Virus record (IMG/VR): IMGVR_UViG_3300028797_000143
Coordinates: 1-64,000 of that record
Strand: one strand, 5' to 3'
DNA from: a virus
Lineage: Duplodnaviria; Caudoviricetes
Length of the DNA: 64,000 nucleotides
The position numbers and the translations under genes were made by a program. Positions 1,247-63,301 of the stretch are shown here, one piece after another; within the stretch, counting starts at the first letter, position 1, and each line of letters starts with the position of its first letter. The notes under the pieces were generated by a model. That model made no database searches. It was not told where the DNA came from and worked only from the letters and a program-made list of their open reading frames with translations.

Positions 1247-2926
1247 TTAATTCAGTGCCACCCAGTCATTAGTGCTACCTGTAACTGCTACGGCGTAATA
1301 AACCTTCTTGCTCACCTTGTCAACATACTGCTGACCAATCTTGCGGGGGCAACCGTTCCATACAGTCATAGTCTCCTCGTCCCAGTTGTCAGGCACGTTG
1401 GCGGCACTCGGAGCACCCTCCACGCTGCTGTAAAGCACGTTAGGCACACCAAGCGTCAGGATGTCATCGCACTCCACACTCTGCGCCTTCACCACAGGCA
1501 GCACGGCATTATCCTTACCAGCGAGCAGTTCACGCAGTGCCTTGTTCTCGCTGTAGAGATACAGCAGGGATTCGGCCACAACACTCAGACTGATGTCGAG
1601 CTTCACCTTGTCAACCTTGCCACCAAGGGCGGTGTCCATTTGTTGTTTGGTGTAGAAGTCGGAGAGGTCTTGCGGTTGTATGAGCGGTGTGCGTGTCACT
1701 GTGTACACATCGTACGGGTCGCCATGCACGTACACGGTCTCGTACTTCTTCGTAGTTCCTACCTCATATTTGTTGACGAAGAAGAAGTCGAAGTAGCTGC
1801 CAACATTTACGATGGTGGCCACCACATAGCCGTAGCCGCCACCCATAGGGATGAGCACCATTTCGCCTATTTGGAGACCATTTCGCAAGGCTTGTAGCTT
1901 GGTGGTCGTCGCGCTTGATAGAGGGTCGGCGAGCAAATCCGATACGGTGAAATCCGCGATTTTTTCCGATGCCATGTTGCCGAGCTTCGTCTTCTCGACC
2001 GTTGTATAGTCGTTCGTCGAGAGCCCCTTGCCGTTCACCTTGTCAACCTTGCCACCAAGGGCGGTGTCCATTTGTTGTTTGGTGTAGAAGTCGGAGAGGT
2101 CTATCTCCTTCGTAATGCTCCATACGTCTTGCGCATTTCCCGTCACCTCATAGTAAGTGCCGTAGTAAATGAACTCAAAGACGAATGAACTGCCCAAGGA
2201 GATGACAGCGGCGGGAACGTAACCGCCTCCCGTGCTCGAATTGTCAGGGAATAATACAAGGTACTTCGCACTGCCGCACGCTTGTCGCAGATTGTACAAT
2301 GCGCGTTGAACAGCCGCGCTGCTAATCGAATTGGCCACGTTATATGCGCTTACCTCCGCAATGATTATCTTTTCAGCCTTGGTAATAGCGTCCTGCACGT
2401 TCTGCGCCATGTCCGATGCGGGGATGCCGCCGCTCGGTTTCTGATAGGCTGTGGCACCAGCCGATGCGCCACTCCTGATAGCATTGATGTCGGTAACAAG
2501 GTTTTGTTTTCCGGCAAGCAAGAGTTTCACCTCATTCTTCGTGTAGTAGTTGCTCGGGTCAAAGATTTCCGTCAGCGGTATGCTGATAGGCTCCTGACCT
2601 GAGTCTGTGTTGAACGTGATGACAAGGTTCCCGTTGGAAATTTCGACACTGCTCACCATGCCGTCCTTGATGAAGTCGGTAGCGTCAATCTGAGCCAGCA
2701 CGGTTGAGCCGTGTTTCAGCTCAATCTTCTTAGTGTTGCTGTTGTACGAGCCTCCGTCAACCAATGACAGCAGTTGTGTCTTGTCGGCCTTGTCGCTGTC
2801 TAAGCTGGCCATCCATTCGGTGAGGGAACCCTTGGCGTTACCCTCTCCTACCTGTACGGCATCGGAGTGAGTACCGAAGTACAGGGTTTCGCCTCCCTCT
2901 GTTCTCTTGATTATCTTCTTTGCCAT
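1247..2926 (-). CDS. Tail fibre/adaptor protein with two internal paralogous modules
   Basis: Position in tail operon; repeated DLSDFYTKQQMDTALGGKVDKV linker; start moved to MAKKIIK (ATG 2926). Confidence 0.65.
   Translation of the reverse strand: MAKKIIKRTEGGETLYFGTHSDAVQVGEGNAKGSLTEWMASLDSDKADKTQLLSLVDGGSYNSNTKKIELKHGSTVLAQIDATDFIKDGMVSSVEISNGNLVITFNTDSGQEPISIPLTEIFDPSNYYTKNEVKLLLAGKQNLVTDINAIRSGASAGATAYQKPSGGIPASDMAQNVQDAITKAEKIIIAEVSAYNVANSISSAAVQRALYNLRQACGSAKYLVLFPDNSSTGGGYVPAAVISLGSSFVFEFIYYGTYYEVTGNAQDVWSITKEIDLSDFYTKQQMDTALGGKVDKVNGKGLSTNDYTTVEKTKLGNMASEKIADFTVSDLLADPLSSATTTKLQALRNGLQIGEMVLIPMGGGYGYVVATIVNVGSYFDFFFVNKYEVGTTKKYETVYVHGDPYDVYTVTRTPLIQPQDLSDFYTKQQMDTALGGKVDKVKLDISLSVVAESLLYLYSENKALRELLAGKDNAVLPVVKAQSVECDDILTLGVPNVLYSSVEGAPSAANVPDNWDEETMTVWNGCPRKIGQQYVDKVSKKVYYAVAVTGSTNDWVALN
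1602..2102. repeat. Exact 69-bp direct repeat (1602-1670 and 2034-2102)
   Basis: Identical ttcaccttgtcaaccttgcc...gtcggagaggtct at both positions. Confidence 0.95.
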
Positions 2927-20545: not shown

Positions 20546-20592
20546 TTTTAACTATAATAATTTGTGTATATGGTAGAAAATCAGTACCTTTG
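20546..20592 (+). promoter_or_regulatory. Strong early promoter P1
   Basis: TTTTAACTA-N6-TTTG-N20-TACCTTTG. Confidence 0.85.
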
Positions 20593-20649
20593 CATATAGA
20601 AAGGAAGGGGAAAGACCCCGAAACCAAGAAACCAATTAAACAGAGAAAA

Positions 20650-20772
20650 ATGAAGCAGACAATCAAGAAACTAATGGAAAACAACTCGGAAAGGATAGGT
20701 TCCGTAGTATGTTTCATCGGCCTTATGGTCATGATGTACATGGCGTACAAAGCAATATGGATATTCTACTAA
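20650..20772 (+). CDS. Small single-TM protein, first gene after P1
   Basis: MKQTIKK...; leader has AACCAATTAAACA. Confidence 0.55.
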   Translation: MKQTIKKLMENNSERIGSVVCFIGLMVMMYMAYKAIWIFY

Positions 20773-20792
20773 CCAATTAAACAGATAGAACT

Positions 20793-21815: not shown

Positions 21816-22166
21816 ATGTTTCTAAGATTTTCAAAAGGAAGCTATCGCCAAGGGAGTAATTATTTGAGCACCATTCGGAAGTGTGTGTTCCTCGGTAACA
21901 CCTTGGTCATGGAGTACGGGAATAAAATAGTAGGCGCCGCATGGTTGCATGAAGAGACGGATAAGACACTTGATTTTGATGTTGTAGTAGCCTCGAAATG
22001 CGAGCTTGGAGCAACCCGTATTGCCCGATACATAAAGAACATGATAGGGAAGTCTAACAAGTTCACAGAAAGCCCAACCTCTAAGAAGCGTAAATATTAC
22101 GTCGAAGAGTGTGAAAGTGACAAGCTACCTATAAATGCTAAATTAGTTCTTTCATTAACCAATTAA
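21816..22166 (+). CDS. Hypothetical protein
   Basis: Operon-spaced ORF. Confidence 0.6.
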   Translation: MFLRFSKGSYRQGSNYLSTIRKCVFLGNTLVMEYGNKIVGAAWLHEETDKTLDFDVVVASKCELGATRIARYIKNMIGKSNKFTESPTSKKRKYYVEECESDKLPINAKLVLSLTN

Positions 22167-22177
22167 ACAAAGAGATT

Positions 22178-22462: not shown

Positions 22463-22495
22463 CCCATATTATTAACCAATTAAATCAGTAAAGTT

Positions 22496-27163: not shown

Positions 27164-27340
27164 AGTATTTTAGCGTTTCTTTGGGTTGCATGTTGTTGCA
27201 TAAAATTGTGTTAAAGTTGCTCATTTTCTTGCACTTCCGAATAATGTTGCATACCTTTGCAAAAACTTAATTTATCGGTTGCATTCATCGGTTGCATAAT
27301 CAAGTATGGTCAATCGGTTGCAATTATCGGTTGCAAGAAA

Positions 27341-28816
27341 ATGGTTAAGTGGGAAGAGGTTTATAGGTATGGTGGCGACAGCGTGCGAGGTGCCTTTAGC
27401 GTCCGCGTGGCTGTTGTCCTAAATCGTGCGTCAAGACCTGATGGCGATGGTAGGTATATGGTGGCTGTCAAAGTTACCCAGGGGAATGACAGGAGGTATT
27501 TCATAAATGTCCCCGGAATACGTATGCTCCCAGAGGACTTCGTTGCCATGTGCCGTGAGAGGGACGTGATGAGGGGAAGGTTCAAGAGGTTCGCGGATAT
27601 AGGAGGAAAGGTAACGGGATTCTATGACAGGGTTTGCCATATGGTCGATGACCTCGTTTTCAATGGGTCCTTCGTCTTTGATGATTTCAAGTACAGGTGG
27701 AATGACATAGAGAAGACCAATCTCGTGGAGATAACACCCTATACGTTATGGGAGCAGGTTGCCAAGGAGCGGTCGGCAGGTACGGAGGAGAGTTACCTCA
27801 TAGCCTTAAGGAGGTTCAAGATAGACATGGGTACGAAAATAAGGTTCTGTGACTTCTCCAAGCCTCTCGTGGCGAGGTGGAAGGAGAAGATGCTCAGTGC
27901 AGGTCTCTCGCGTACTACGGCCAATATCTATATCCGTTCCCTACGTGTTGTTCTCAACGATGCCCGAAGGATGGGACAGCTTTCCGATACGCGGGGTGTC
28001 TTCGATGGGCTGTGTATAGGTGGAAGGAACAGCTATAATAGCCGAAAGGAGAAATATCTGTCCGTAGAACAGTGGACGCGCCTATGGCTGTTCTATGAGT
28101 CTAAAGGAGAGGGAAACGAGGTTTATCTGTCATGGAGGGAAGACCAGAAGAAGGACAGGATGGAGGCCTTGGGTATGATGCTCTTCATGTACCTTGCTGA
28201 CGGGATGAACCTGAGAGACGTCGTAAGCCTGAGATATGACGATTACTACTATCAGCATGATCGCAGGCAATTGCATTTCCAGAGGCAGAAGGTCGCGGAG
28301 CGTTCGGGTGCCAAGGTTGTCTTCCCCGTCTTAGAGCCTATACGTATCATCCTCGAAAGACAAGGGGAGAAGGAGGTACGCGGAGGCCTTGTGTTCGGAT
28401 ACCTCAAAGGGAGGGTGAAACTCGACTCACAGACGAAAGAGACCGCCAAGGAGATAAGAAGACTTACGGCCTTGTACAACTCTACGATTGGTGACAGGGT
28501 AGCCCATATCGCCGATGCTATAGGCCTTGACGTACACCCTACCCCCACGTGGTGTAGGCACTCTTTTGCGAGTAACCTCATACAGGCTGGTGTTCCGAAG
28601 GAGTACATCACCGCTTCCATGGCACATAGCAGCGATGATACCACGGATAACTACATAGACATGTATTCCTATGAGCAGATGGTTGACTACAACAGCCGCC
28701 TCCTGGATGACCCTTCGAGGAAGAAGAACAGGGTTCGCGACATCTTCAAGGGCTTCTCCGAAGAGGAGTTGGAAGAGCTGAGGGCACTGATGGGGATGAA
28801 GCAGGATGAAACGTAA
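27341..28816 (+). CDS. int: Tyrosine integrase, Bacteroidales type with arm-binding N-terminal domain
   Basis: RHSFA, SMAHS and catalytic Tyr region; start moved to MVKWEEV, downstream of promoter 27228-27259. Confidence 0.92.
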   Translation: MVKWEEVYRYGGDSVRGAFSVRVAVVLNRASRPDGDGRYMVAVKVTQGNDRRYFINVPGIRMLPEDFVAMCRERDVMRGRFKRFADIGGKVTGFYDRVCHMVDDLVFNGSFVFDDFKYRWNDIEKTNLVEITPYTLWEQVAKERSAGTEESYLIALRRFKIDMGTKIRFCDFSKPLVARWKEKMLSAGLSRTTANIYIRSLRVVLNDARRMGQLSDTRGVFDGLCIGGRNSYNSRKEKYLSVEQWTRLWLFYESKGEGNEVYLSWREDQKKDRMEALGMMLFMYLADGMNLRDVVSLRYDDYYYQHDRRQLHFQRQKVAERSGAKVVFPVLEPIRIILERQGEKEVRGGLVFGYLKGRVKLDSQTKETAKEIRRLTALYNSTIGDRVAHIADAIGLDVHPTPTWCRHSFASNLIQAGVPKEYITASMAHSSDDTTDNYIDMYSYEQMVDYNSRLLDDPSRKKNRVRDIFKGFSEEELEELRALMGMKQDET

Positions 28817-29549: not shown

Positions 29550-29939
29550 TTATTTGATGGACAGCTTTTCGAGAAGCGTCACGAGTGAGGTGCTGATGGC
29601 CGTCAGCTGTATTTGTATTTGGTTCTGCATATCTATCTGCTGGCAGATGGTCTCGTTCTGCTTTTTGACGACGCTTAGCAGGTCGAGAAGTGCAAGGTTT
29701 CCACCCTTAAAGGGAGGTATCTCACCCACCTTGATCTGTTCGGCGCTGTCAGTGATGTAAGCGTCCACTGTTTCCCTGCCGTATTCCTGACGCAACATAT
29801 CAAGTTGCTTCTCGGTAAGGTCTATACCATTTGTCTCAACCCTTGAAAGGTTCGACTGAGAGAGACCTAAGATAGTAGCGAAGTCCCCTTGGCGAATGTC
29901 CTTGGCTCTCCGAAACTCTCTAATCTTGAAATTACCCAT
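29550..29939 (-). CDS. Putative immunity repressor (XRE HTH)
   Basis: IRQGDFATILGLSQSNLSRVE; ATG 29939; divergent from cro-like gene. Confidence 0.75.
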   Translation of the reverse strand: MGNFKIREFRRAKDIRQGDFATILGLSQSNLSRVETNGIDLTEKQLDMLRQEYGRETVDAYITDSAEQIKVGEIPPFKGGNLALLDLLSVVKKQNETICQQIDMQNQIQIQLTAISTSLVTLLEKLSIK

Positions 29940-29984
29940 AATATTGTTAATTTTGTATAAATGGATGAATATATTAGTGTTATA

Positions 29985-30069
29985 TTTGCATAAATGCAGA
30001 TAAATTCGTATCTTTGCACAAAGAATAAAACGATGGTGCAAAAGTAATGGAAAATATTCAATCATCAAA
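29985..30069. promoter_or_regulatory. Face-to-face promoter pair (lysis/lysogeny switch)
   Basis: Rightward TTTG 29985 / TATCTTTG 30009; leftward TTTG 30066-69 / TACTTTTG 30039-46. Confidence 0.7.
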
Positions 30070-30313
30070 GCGTTTTCAGCAGAATTTCGAAAAAATATCC
30101 CTCAGGGGATACTATAACGGCCTTCCCGAGCGCGTGTCACCTAAGCTACAGTTCCTCGAAGAGATACAGAGGAGGTGTAAGGAAGAGAGTGGCAAGCAGG
30201 TGACGATGGCCACCGTAAGGAATTGGGTACTCTATGGCATCAAGCCGATGAATCCCATTCATGTGAAGGTTATATCCGACATTACTAACATTAAAGAAGA
30301 AGACCTATGGTAG
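30047..30313 (+). CDS. Cro-like HTH protein
   Basis: VTMATVRNWV; first gene of rightward operon. Confidence 0.6.
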   Translation: MENIQSSKRFQQNFEKISLRGYYNGLPERVSPKLQFLEEIQRRCKEESGKQVTMATVRNWVLYGIKPMNPIHVKVISDITNIKEEDLW

Positions 30314-30861
30314 GAGCAGAGTTCTATATTTTCGACAATGAGCTGTGGTGCAAGTCGGACGATGGGAGGAACTTCATCGTTGACGAGACCTGTACGGAGG
30401 TTATCTCTTATATTATAAATAATGTACGCGCGAGATACCCAGAGGCTTACAAGGCTCTCTCCAAGCACTACCAGAAGAGTTCTATCAGTGCATCCTACTA
30501 TCAGTATTTAATGGCAAGGAGGTTCTGTAAGTGCAATTTCGGTTCACTTGATGCCACTTCGGAGGATGTCCGTAATGACGGAGTGTTCAACTTTGAGAAC
30601 GTCCAATGTCCCATGAGAGGGGAGTGTCCCTTGGAGGGTGTTGTATGTAATCCCGTTTTTGATGCTCACCTCTTGAAGTCCGAGATGAGGGTGATGAAGC
30701 TGTGGTATGAAGGACGGACAAAGGAGGAGATAGCCGAGGAGCTGTTCATCTCCCCGGGGACTGTGAAGAATCATATTAAGAGCGCCTACCTGAAGCTTGG
30801 CGTCCATTCGGAGGCTGAGTTTGTGAGGTACGCAAAAGATAATCATTTATTCACCAATTAA
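30307..30861 (+). CDS. Protein with C-terminal LuxR/GerE-type HTH
   Basis: EIAEELFISPGTVKNHIKSAYLKLGV; Cys-containing linker. Confidence 0.85.
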   Translation: MVGAEFYIFDNELWCKSDDGRNFIVDETCTEVISYIINNVRARYPEAYKALSKHYQKSSISASYYQYLMARRFCKCNFGSLDATSEDVRNDGVFNFENVQCPMRGECPLEGVVCNPVFDAHLLKSEMRVMKLWYEGRTKEEIAEELFISPGTVKNHIKSAYLKLGVHSEAEFVRYAKDNHLFTN

Positions 30862-30868
30862 ACGAGTT

Positions 30869-35244: not shown

Positions 35245-35493
35245 ATGGACCTATTTGAGTTTTTAAAGGGCTTCTCCTCGAAGGATAAGTCCGTCATGAA
35301 GCGTTATCATGTGCGCCCAGATAAGATAGACCTCATCTTTAAGCTGAGGTGTGTGGAGTCTATCTCCAAGGTCTTCGAGAGGGGTGTGCGGAAGTTGCAA
35401 GTCAACCTCTCCAACGGCAAGAAAGCGTACGTGGACGATTACATTGTCAAACTACCCAACGGAGAGTGGGACGTAATAAGAGATCAGTTATGA
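35245..35493 (+). CDS. Hypothetical protein
   Basis: Coupled to next gene. Confidence 0.5.
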   Translation: MDLFEFLKGFSSKDKSVMKRYHVRPDKIDLIFKLRCVESISKVFERGVRKLQVNLSNGKKAYVDDYIVKLPNGEWDVIRDQL

Positions 35494-35972
35494 TAAGAAG
35501 GACACCTTTGAAAAGGACTTCCAAGAAAAGGGAGCCCAACTATACCGCAGATATGGATAGGGTTTTCCAGTACTATATCAGGCTGAGGGACGTCATGCCG
35601 GGAGGGTATGGGAGATGTATCTCATGCGGTAAGATACGACCTTTCAACCACCTTCAGGCAGGCCATTTTTATAGTCGAAGACATATGAGTACGAGGTGGA
35701 ACGAAGATAACGTCCATGCCGAGTGCGAGGGCTGTAACTGCTTTGATGGCGATCATCTCTTAAGCTACCAGCAGAACCTTGCCAAGAAGATAGGCATGGA
35801 GAGGATGCAATACCTTGCCGTGGCTCATAACCAGACGAGGAATTGGCATCCCTTCGAGATACAGACTATGGTCAAGCACTATGGAGAGGAGGTCATACGC
35901 CTCGCCTCCGTAAAGGGTCTGCCCATTGCCGAGGATGTCATGCGTATCATCAGAAAGTACCAGAAGATGTAA
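35490..35972 (+). CDS. NinG/Rap-like nuclease
   Basis: YIRLRD..CISCG..QAGHF.SR...N.HAECEGCN; ATG 35490. Confidence 0.85.
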   Translation: MIRRTPLKRTSKKREPNYTADMDRVFQYYIRLRDVMPGGYGRCISCGKIRPFNHLQAGHFYSRRHMSTRWNEDNVHAECEGCNCFDGDHLLSYQQNLAKKIGMERMQYLAVAHNQTRNWHPFEIQTMVKHYGEEVIRLASVKGLPIAEDVMRIIRKYQKM

Positions 35973-36043
35973 AAATTGGAGCACGTCTCACGACGGGCTC
36001 CAAATTAACCAATTAAACAGGGAGTTATGAGAACTCGGTCTGT
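35971..36043 (-). ncRNA. Candidate sRNA-1 (about 70 nt), antisense to early-gene leaders
   Basis: Promoter CTTG(36078-81)-N20-TATCTTTG(36050-57); GTGA-looped terminator 35976-36003 plus U tract; no ORF. Confidence 0.65.
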
Positions 36044-36090
36044 TCGGTGCAAAGATACAATGTTATCTTGAATCTTGCAAGTAAATCGGT

Positions 36091-36150
36091 AAAAAGCCTG
36101 CTTCCGCAGGTAGAAAAGAGAGAAAACTCTTGAGAGAAATGGAATTATTT
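36091..36150 (-). ncRNA. Candidate sRNA-2 (about 60 nt)
   Basis: Promoter TTTG(36186-89)-N20-TACCTTTG(36158-65); CCTGC-GGAA-GCAGG terminator plus U tract; no ORF. Confidence 0.55.
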
Positions 36151-36232
36151 AACGATGCAAAGGTATTGATAATTATTGATATATACAAATATATGCAACG
36201 GAATTTCGCGCCTTTCGGCCATTATTTAGTAT

Positions 36233-36315: not shown

Positions 36316-36612
36316 ATGGAAAAGACAACAACATCACATCTAATAGCTGACTATCACAGCTTTGTGAGAGATTTGAAGTCACAGTTCAACGCTGTTCAAG
36401 TATTGGAGAAATCCTTCTTCGAGCTTGAAGACCTGTGCGAGTGGTCAATAGTAAACGGAGTGACCTGCCTCAATGACAAGAATGAGCGGGTGAGTGTCGT
36501 GGATGAGACGCTTGGCAGGCAGCAAAACGAAATGTATGAGAAGCTTTGCAAGGCCGTGAAAGACTTGCATTGCATGCTTTCATCGGGTGTATCATGCTTT
36601 AATAAACAGTAA
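36316..36612 (+). CDS. Hypothetical protein
   Basis: First ORF after P2. Confidence 0.6.
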   Translation: MEKTTTSHLIADYHSFVRDLKSQFNAVQVLEKSFFELEDLCEWSIVNGVTCLNDKNERVSVVDETLGRQQNEMYEKLCKAVKDLHCMLSSGVSCFNKQ

Positions 36613-36613
36613 T

Positions 36614-37000
36614 ATGGATTTGAATCAATTCATCAAGAAAAGCCACCTCCGAGCCGTTGAGAAGTTCAACGCAGATCTGGAGGCATTCGTAAAGGAAACG
36701 GGGGACAATACCCTCTATGAGGACGTAAACACGCCGTTTACCCTTTCAAACGTGAGAGTCGAGAACGGTAAGCTCTGCTACACCTTCGATGGTGCGGAGG
36801 AGAGCGAGAACCAGGTATACTTGGATTCGGAAGATAATCAGTACTACGAGTCCGAGGGCTTGGACAGCATCCCAGAGTATATCAAGTTTTGGAGAGCGTG
36901 CCTCCGGCGTGCGAGGAGATATTGGACGATGAGCCCAGAGCAGCTTGACAGACTCTCCGATGGAGAGGAAGAAGAGGAGGACTCCGAATTAACCGATTAA
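36614..37000 (+). CDS. Acidic hypothetical protein
   Basis: Start moved to MDLNQF. Confidence 0.65.
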   Translation: MDLNQFIKKSHLRAVEKFNADLEAFVKETGDNTLYEDVNTPFTLSNVRVENGKLCYTFDGAEESENQVYLDSEDNQYYESEGLDSIPEYIKFWRACLRRARRYWTMSPEQLDRLSDGEEEEEDSELTD

Positions 37001-37010
37001 ACAGTAACCC

Positions 37011-37036
37011 GCCCTGCGGGTAGTGTCCCGCAGGGC
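37011..37036 (+). terminator. GC-rich stem-loop
   Basis: gccctgcggg-tagtgt-cccgcagggc. Confidence 0.6.
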
Positions 37037-37050
37037 TTAATAATAAGAAT

Positions 37051-40303: not shown

Positions 40304-40329
40304 ACAATAACCAATTAAACAAAGCAGTT

Positions 40330-40973: not shown

Positions 40974-41022
40974 CATAAAGAAAGATAAGAAGAGTACACT
41001 AAACCAATTAAACAGAAAAGTC

Positions 41023-58733: not shown

Positions 58734-58791
58734 TATATAAGAAAGAAAGGAAAGCCCTTTCAAACAGAAACCAATTAAACAGAGTACAGCT

Positions 58792-59447: not shown

Positions 59448-60286
59448 CACAGCTTACAAAGCCCATGTTGGCTACAGGATATGATAAGACCCGTGTGAAG
59501 TTCCCATGCATCGTCCAGACTAAATTGGACGGCGTGAGAGCGCTTCTCTGTTTGATTGGTAATGAGGTACACATCCTTTCACGCACGGGGAAAGAGTATT
59601 ATGTACCACACCTGAGAGAGTGGGCAGAGGGTCACAGAGACCTTCTCCCCCTCGACGGTGAAATCTACGCCTACAAGGATTTGACGTTCCAGCAGATCTG
59701 CTCGGCAGTGAAATGCAAATCGGATTGGACGGATAAGCTTAAGTTCGTGGCGTATGATAGACCAATAACAGAAGAGACAAACATCAAAAGGTGGTCAAAC
59801 CTTCTATCTGACTTGGAAAAGGTACAAGACCCCGTTAATCTCTGCCAGACGATAATATGCCACTCTTTTGAGGAGATAGAACGATGGCATGACTTCTTCG
59901 TACAGCAAGGCTACGAGGGTGCTATCATCCGTAATATGGATGGTATGTATATCGAAGGAAGAAGCGGGAATCTTATGAAGCTGAAGAAATTCGACACTGA
60001 CGAATACGAGATAGCTGATGTGATAGAGGCCAGCGGACAGGACAAGGGCACGGCAATATTCAAGCTGGTGGTGGCCGACTTCCTGTGGACGGAAGAGGCT
60101 CACCCAGCGGGCAAGCCATTTACGTTCTTTGCCCGCCCGACTGGGAGCAAGGTGCTCCGTGCAAGCTATCTGCGAGACCGTGAGAAGCTGATAGGCAAGC
60201 AGTGTACCATCCGGCATTTCGGATTCACGGACGGCGGTGTCATCCCCCGCTTCCCTGTGGCGTTAGGAATTAGAGACTATGAGTAA
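59444..60286 (+). CDS. ATP-dependent DNA ligase
   Basis: KLDGVR, DGEIY, EGAIIR, KLKKF, OB-fold C-terminus. Confidence 0.9.
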   Translation: MTQLTKPMLATGYDKTRVKFPCIVQTKLDGVRALLCLIGNEVHILSRTGKEYYVPHLREWAEGHRDLLPLDGEIYAYKDLTFQQICSAVKCKSDWTDKLKFVAYDRPITEETNIKRWSNLLSDLEKVQDPVNLCQTIICHSFEEIERWHDFFVQQGYEGAIIRNMDGMYIEGRSGNLMKLKKFDTDEYEIADVIEASGQDKGTAIFKLVVADFLWTEEAHPAGKPFTFFARPTGSKVLRASYLRDREKLIGKQCTIRHFGFTDGGVIPRFPVALGIRDYE

Positions 60287-60306
60287 CCAATTAAACAGTA
60301 TGAGTT

Positions 60307-60548: not shown

Positions 60549-60604
60549 CATATAGAAAGGAAGGGAGAGCCCTTCGAGTTAAAAACCAATTAAACAAGAA
60601 AGTT

Positions 60605-62248: not shown

Positions 62249-62306
62249 CATATAAGGAAGAAGGAGGAGTGCTCCTTTAATCAAGAACCAATTAAACAGA
62301 AAAGTT

Positions 62307-62778: not shown

Positions 62779-63294
62779 ATGTTACGGTTTGCCTTATTGA
62801 ACTACACTCCCAAGCGGTATATGAGACGTGCCAGCTTCGAGGCGCAGGAGTCAAATCGTTACATCATTGACTTCAAGAACGGACGCAAGTATGCCATCCG
62901 AATCATAACGGATATGGTTTGTGAGACGCTATCGAAGACGAACATGGATAACACCATTATCGTGAACATCCCTGCAAGCTGTGAGAGGACAACAGAGCGG
63001 AGGTACAGGACGTTCATGAATGATGTGTGTGACAGGTGCGGGGCTGTGAATGGCTTCGGGCATGTCCATGTCTTTGGGAAGAGGGAGAAGTCACATATCA
63101 TACGTCACCACAGCCACCTTGACAATGTGAGGATAGACAATGACTTCTTCCGTGGTCGCAGGGTGATAGTGGTTGATGACATCTGTACCACAGGACAGAC
63201 ATCAAATAGTTTCATAGAACGCCTGAAGATGGCAGGTGCCGATGTTCGGATGGCGTTATTCATAGCAAAGACAAAGAAATTCAAAACCAATTAA
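62779..63294 (+). CDS. Phosphoribosyltransferase-fold protein (ComF-like)
   Basis: VIVVDDICTTGQT PRPP-binding motif. Confidence 0.85.
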   Translation: MLRFALLNYTPKRYMRRASFEAQESNRYIIDFKNGRKYAIRIITDMVCETLSKTNMDNTIIVNIPASCERTTERRYRTFMNDVCDRCGAVNGFGHVHVFGKREKSHIIRHHSHLDNVRIDNDFFRGRRVIVVDDICTTGQTSNSFIERLKMAGADVRMALFIAKTKKFKTN

Positions 63295-63301
63295 ACAGAT
63301 T

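Follow-up and report, generated by a model that had tools for sequence, protein, structure and literature searches.

The stretch of DNA analyzed here, referred to as the window, comprises the initial 64 kb of a virus record of 88,861 bp. An integrase gene lies at 27257-28816 and an HTH regulator gene at 29550-30068 on the minus strand. A rightward early operon encodes a LuxR/sigma-like regulator, an Erf-like annealing protein, an exonuclease, a helicase and, as its last gene, ninG/rap (35349-35972, plus strand); DnaD-, DnaC- and DnaB-like genes are located downstream of ninG. Because its relatives are Prevotellaceae prophages, the phage is a temperate Bacteroidales phage of the Prevotellaceae type. 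None of the INPHARED isolates has the locus described below, and the nearest TerL proteins (about 49%) are in Bacteroides fragilis phages. The phage has two LuxR-like paralogs, at 30307 and 65985, and an antirepressor gene at 66743, which is 30 kb from the locus. A 585-aa head morphogenesis (MuF-like) protein (L390:5689-7446, minus strand) has the ADP-ribosyltransferase-bearing phage family phrog_16625 among its top family matches.

Convergent with ninG is a predicted small RNA (sRNA) gene of about 80 nt (35966-36045, minus strand). The first-pass annotation had claimed a minus-strand promoter and an intrinsic terminator that works for that strand only, and both are confirmed. The promoter has the -33 element CTTG (for TTTG) at 36081-36078, a 20-nt spacer and the -7 box TATCTTTG at 36057-36050, followed by CA, which is the Bacteroidota TAnnTTTG; transcription is predicted to start near 36045. 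The terminator (35971-36003) has a stem at 36003-35976 with a GUGA tetraloop and a U-tract at 35975-35971 that overlaps the ninG stop codon, and the plus strand has no U-tract at the stem. A simple terminator scanner missed this terminator because the stem carries an internal mismatch. The middle of the RNA had been described as unpaired, which is correct for only part of it: about UAAUUGGUU is single-stranded, but 36045-36015 forms a 5' hairpin, P1 (p = 0.007), whose loop CUCAU (36031-36027) is an anti-start-codon segment. The seed (36007-36019), in which UUAAUUGG is invariant, is the complement of a 13-mer found in gene leaders, and about nine of its bases are free in the fold. With most of the middle inside P1, the unpaired bases predicted there are limited to the seed and the anti-AUG loop. 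Compared to dinucleotide shuffles, the fold has a z of -4.96.

We found 16 distinct sequence variants of this unit, adjoining ninG, in about 80 viral contigs and one Segatella copri prophage. They were collected by NinG searches and a DNA pattern scan and come from rumen-type phages and from the viral contigs, most of which are of the S. copri type. All of the variants have the -7 box (TAnnTTTGCA in every homolog, a pattern that formed part of one search), the invariant UUAAUUGG and a GNRA terminator, features that were partly built into the search patterns; it was through ninG alone, though, that L001, L020, L023, L184 and the S. copri types initially came to light. A TTG-like element at a similar spacing is present in most homologs. 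Two-sided changes occur in 10 of the 12 terminator pairs, in all 17 alignment rows the minus-strand fold is more stable than that of the complementary strand, and the P1 hairpin has p <= 0.02 in 14 of 16 homologs. The homologous P1 loops (CAU, CAUAA, CUUGU, UAUAAU and UCU) are the complement of AUG or of the adjacent GAUUAU. The distance from the terminator GNRA loop to the ninG stop is 8-18 nt in 14 of the 16 genomes, and 131 and 740 nt in the other two. The unit has its own promoter and intrinsic terminator and no conserved ORF, as a trans-acting sRNA gene would. Taken together, these comparisons support a conserved non-coding RNA gene on the minus strand and a family of phage sRNAs. Alternatively, the locus could be a decayed plus-strand gene start or encode a 14-aa micropeptide, since a leader and an ATG are present on the plus strand in the source phage. 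However, the ATG is missing in six homologous loci, the ORFs at the other loci run from 5 to 71 codons with no common sequence, and it is the minus-strand features that are conserved; we consider this explanation very improbable.

A covariance model of the family matches only three of 151 host-family genomes, one of them the S. copri N016-9 prophage, which indicates that the sRNA is not chromosomal. The N016-9 prophage lies on contig NZ_JAPDUQ010000001.1 and has the sRNA locus at L119:10411-10502 on the minus strand. L393 and L394 are model matches at E about 1e-4 without ninG or a clear promoter, and we left them unassigned; the L393 match (1480-1600, minus strand, 51 bits), in another host-family genome, has the seed and terminator with no -7 box or ninG nearby. 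One candidate, L316/G009, was rejected as a member because it fits the search pattern but has no ninG, targets or stable fold; it is among the 17 rows of the alignment (A2) and the model (R1). On a NinG tree, three gains or losses of the sRNA are needed within one subclade. Relatives without the sRNA have other arrangements at this place. In L050, L053, L106, L107, L108, L128, L200, L232, L241 and L244, for example, the segment 60-200 nt past the ninG stop contains a plus-strand promoter together with a structured leader. These leaders contain short internal complementary segments before a replication gene and recall a C4-like cis switch, and the S. copri types have a similar structured leader located after the long complementary site described below. 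The low-GC flavobacterial-type ninG loci (L002-L007) have a same-strand U-rich 3' UTR and terminator directly after the ninG stop; no leaders matching this 3' UTR RNA were seen within the short ninG loci.

The 13-mer complementary to the seed, AACCAATTAAACA, had been reported in 10 leaders, and it does have 10 exact copies in the window besides the one at 36007, all on the plus strand and each shortly before an ATG. In the whole 88.9-kb genome there are 12 forward copies, no reverse copies and none of the reversed control; eleven of them precede genes as leaders, and the remaining one is the seed as it appears on the opposite strand. When pairing with the sRNA was predicted for the start regions of all 151 predicted genes, with opening costs included, the best 13 stood apart at -8.3 to -17 kcal/mol, the others being at -5.4 or weaker. 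The exact leaders in the window are those of gene 20650 (20630-20642), which encodes 40 aa and is the first gene after a TTTTAACTA-box promoter; 20793 (20771-20783, -11.3 kcal/mol net); 22178 (22157-22169, -14.2); 40330, after dnaB (40309-40321, -15.1); 41023 (41002-41014, -13.7); 58792 (58769-58781); 60307 (60285-60297, -17.0); 60605 (60584-60596, -12.9); 62307 (62286-62298), whose family is a target in four genomes; and 63302 (63285-63297, -9.8), all on the plus strand. Two plus-strand leaders are variants: that of gene 22496 (22474-22486), which encodes a DUF932/DUF3871-like protein of a family that is a target in eight genomes, and that of the Erf-like ssDNA annealing gene 30869 (30852-30864). 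The latter had been named as an example of the matching leaders; it has two mismatches but pairs over 20 nt. The thirteenth target, gene 71637, has three deviations from the core, all of them G-U compatible. Genes 41023, 58792, 60605 and 62307 are cassette heads, in agreement with the proposal that the first genes of cassettes are the targets, but internal operon genes are targeted as well. In silico, then, a conserved, accessible seed is complementary to unlinked mRNAs. In the predicted duplexes, pairing extends from about -23 to +3 and takes in the AUG; several of the leaders follow 5' hairpins. Pfam and PHROG named almost none of the targets, and since most have no known function, we can only infer the biological role of the sRNA.

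The DUF932-like gene also displays a pattern of its own in the S. copri types, where it has the motif in its leader and an antisense seed plus hairpin in its 3' UTR (L384/L385, that is G015 C1 574084; G003:21; G007:20; G012:22719).

Motifs repeated before genes could instead be DNA operators for a phage protein, the copy at 36007 being one more of them. This idea would fit a few motif copies that have no ORF downstream; in S. copri-type phages, one such copy immediately precedes a promoter. Yet the copies are placed a few nt before ATGs, inside operons and far from promoters, and the antisense promoter, P1 and the terminator would be left without an explanation. Furthermore, the dispersed promoters carry a different box, TTTTAACTA, and all ten genomic TTTTAACTA boxes are exactly 39 nt upstream of the -7 box. 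These promoters are at 20546, 36233, 40927, 48247, 58687, 60502 and 62202 in the window and at 66658, 71548 and 81402 in the genome. The TTTTAACTA box is likely the site of a phage regulator, for which the LuxR-like paralogs at 30307 and 65985 are candidates. In eight of the ten cases the first leader has a seed match. An operator function for the 13-mer is accordingly something to which we give a small chance. The sRNA promoter has no TTTTAACTA box.

If the motif is read by the RNA, the two should vary together. Co-variation of seeds and leaders was checked in related phages with a 13 x 13 cross-pairing matrix, and for 10 of the 13 genomes the RNA that ranks first with the leaders is the one from the same phage (permutation p about 1e-5, the related phages not being independent). 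There are 13 motif leaders in the 161 kb of ninG loci that bear the RNA, compared to 11 in the 2,070 kb of loci lacking it, so that the leader motif is about 15-fold enriched in sRNA-carrying phages; the odds ratio is 19 for exact motif matches near starts. Rumen types have AGUUAUG in common between leaders and RNA, and S. copri types have UAAAGAUUAUG. Lineage-specific changes in the flank appear on both the RNA and the leader sides, TAGA in G010 and TCGA in G007. A generic Bacteroidota leader signal is ruled out by host counts: in the 3.8-Mb genome of S. copri N016-9, eight of the 14 motif copies are inside the prophage of about 65 kb, and none of the six outside it precedes a sizeable ORF. 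These results support a leader motif that is phage-specific and tracks the sRNA, and a seed that co-evolves with the leaders of its own phage. A likeness between RNA and leaders could also arise if sequence is copied from one locus to another. Tests with G-U wobbles, which were meant to tell RNA pairing from DNA identity, gave 8 versus 3 transitions in one case, p = 0.08 in another and no signal in a third.

One further site matches the RNA even better. The plus strand at 36979-37004, over the stop codon of ORF 36587-37000, is complementary to the seed and the 5' arm of the terminator, and its duplex of about 26 nt has -38.6 compared to -27.1 for the next site. The orthologous ORF of L184, 56% identical, contains such a long site; in the S. 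copri types it lies in an unrelated ORF. The long sites follow the variable terminator arm of their own RNA; in G012, for example, a C-to-G change is common to the RNA and the site. Because it has no start codon at the usual distance, the long site looks like a decoy, and we regard 36979-37004 as a candidate decoy or sponge. Directly after it, a GC-rich stem with an alternative shorter stem is conserved (window 37005-37045, plus strand; L184:12300-12360). This stem precedes gene 37051 and the replication genes and might be a switch coupled to sRNA binding.

The strength of the long site, by far greater than that of any leader, together with the equivocal wobble counts would also fit a real RNA that acts mainly in cis, against read-through from the ninG operon or on the long site as a single partner. 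The leader motif would then be a translational enhancer or a protein-binding site, its A/C-rich composition being like that of known enhancers, and the RNA would resemble the leaders through sequence copying. Against this, a seed that is invariant and fits distant leaders is nothing that a cis antisense RNA would require, and such an RNA would not account for the rarity of the motif where the RNA is absent, the lineage-specific changes common to the RNA and several leaders, or the anti-start segment presented by the P1 loops. We judge this explanation unlikely, even if it is the strongest of the competing ones.

Our preferred reading, to which we assign a probability of about 0.7, is that a trans-acting sRNA blocks initiation on about 13 dispersed early/middle genes and is neutralized on induction. 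The conserved RNA gene, the phage-specific target motif and their co-variation are computational observations; on transcription, repression, timing, an immunity role and neutralization, we infer the following. The sRNA of about 80 nt would be made from its host-type promoter. Its single-stranded seed would nucleate on AACCAAUUA, which precedes the start codon by about 12-22 nt, and pairing would then open P1 and extend over the start codon. Loading of the 30S subunit on these leaders lacking a Shine-Dalgarno (SD) sequence would be blocked and translation repressed. Translation of Bacteroidota mRNAs involves no SD pairing and relies on adenines upstream and on a low degree of structure (PMC6847099), and the Bacteroides sRNAs GibS and FopS repress SD-less mRNAs via pairing near the start codon (PMC7366714, PMC11697453). 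Pairing with the leaders might conversely activate or stabilize the mRNAs, perhaps through the opening of structure or the protection of 5' ends, and the hairpins that several leaders follow could be seen in this light; but duplexes that include the AUG would occlude the ribosome site, and we think activation improbable. As for the purpose of repression, leaky and probably host-harming cassettes would be kept silent in the lysogen or early after infection. That the sRNA promoter is not part of the TTTTAACTA-box regulon points to expression in the lysogen, where the sRNA would counter leakage from the ten strong, dispersed promoters; an alternative timing is that the sRNA serves as a late shut-off.

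On induction, the sRNA would presumably be removed by complementary read-through from the ninG operon and by the long site at 36979-37004. Since no plus-strand terminator was found after ninG, transcription of the early operon should continue across the sRNA gene, and the early mRNA should carry a perfect antisense copy of the sRNA. Additional RNAs of this kind may exist. The divergent gene 36316 has a leader complementary to a second, tandem promoter-to-terminator RNA (36091-36165, minus strand); this RNA is kept in L020, L023 and L184, and its own target is the best in all four cases. The 3' UTR of the LuxR-like gene at 66575 (genome 66570-66640, or L390:4570-4640, plus strand) has a seed and a terminator as well as 16 nt complementary to the antirepressor leader, and would be a second seed-bearing RNA. 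A more ambitious proposal, which we offer tentatively with the odds somewhat against it, is a complete RNA-level regulon. Here the master sRNA would silence all of the dispersed early/middle cassettes through the co-evolving leader motif, a phage mRNA 3' end and the ninG read-through would be built-in anti-sRNAs, and further anti-leader RNAs would cover the antirepressor and the replication operon. Such a regulon would be a second, repressor-independent layer of immunity, widespread in S. copri prophages and acting also on related superinfecting phages with the same seed.

To our knowledge, phage sRNAs regulate either one phage gene (Sar, OOP, aQ, C4) or host mRNAs (PreS, DicF, svsR). A single RNA controlling a dozen scattered phage genes via a co-evolving start-region motif would, if true, be a new lysis-lysogeny design. 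Since prophages of S. copri, a very common human gut bacterium, contain the sRNA, a sequenced lysogen (N016-9) offers a direct test. The motif is also a marker for a group of early proteins that otherwise lack annotation, and the RNA with its leaders would provide Bacteroidales, which use no SD pairing, with a ready-made orthogonal translational switch. Our verdict, from sequence comparisons, is that the sRNA represents a real, conserved and undescribed phage sRNA family, found in temperate Prevotella phages of gut and rumen; literature searches found no description of it, and there was no seed match among the entries listed in the accessible parts of the supplements to an S. copri dRNA-seq preprint and a microbiome structured-RNA paper.

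Several known RNAs resemble it in part. SrcF of S. copri is a conserved chromosomal sRNA of 272 nt, unlike the phage sRNA with its 80 nt or so and its three model matches in 151 family genomes. We know of no sequence relation to GcvB, and OOP and Sar are convergent to early transcripts. The closest likeness is to FopS/GibS of Bacteroides thetaiotaomicron (RF04319; PMC11697453, PMC7366714), which is also a small promoter-to-terminator RNA with a canonical Bacteroides promoter, and whose unpaired seed prevents initiation on several SD-less mRNAs by binding close to their start codons. There is a loose likeness in sequence (CAUA ... UUUAA ... GGUUAA), and the FopS sequence has also been seen in a phage (same papers). 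However, the RF04319 covariance model (threshold 56 bits) has no match in G000, G001 or G010 and reaches only 12.8 bits, at other places, in G003; as a positive control, it found the true FopS copies in the S. copri chromosome. Local alignment to the FopS R1' seed consensus gives p = 0.10 for the sRNA and p < 0.05 in two of the 17 rows, the range across rows being 0.03-0.55 and mostly not significant, and the FopS consensus pairs poorly with the phage leaders (-9.4 vs. -25.7). FopS has only a single-stranded 5' region and a terminator, whereas the 5' hairpin is conserved in 14 of the 16 phage sRNAs, and FopS/GibS targets are host PUL genes rather than phage genes.

With regard to role, the C4 (immI) RNA of P1/P7 (PMC8198154) is likewise a small phage RNA that represses early genes post-transcriptionally and supports lysogeny. 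C4 is encoded in the icd-ant leader and acts on that same operon, whereas the sRNA is a stand-alone unit beside ninG, with its own promoter and terminator, about 13 unlinked leaders and the antirepressor gene 30 kb away. Rfam searches at gathering and E-value thresholds returned nothing meaningful for the sRNA, C4-type RNAs included. P22 Sar, lambda OOP and aQ and phi24B 24B_1 (PMC12197685) are phage RNAs whose pairing adjusts lysis and lysogeny, but each has one target, they are mostly cis-encoded, and they have no genome-wide co-evolving leader motif. GcvB of enteric bacteria (PMC3879156) is a multi-target sRNA that binds an A/C-rich element upstream of start codons, but it is chromosomal and Hfq-dependent and its targets are host transporters. 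By analogy, then, the phage sRNA would work like FopS/GibS and have a role like that of P1 C4 or P22 Sar, while belonging to none of these families.
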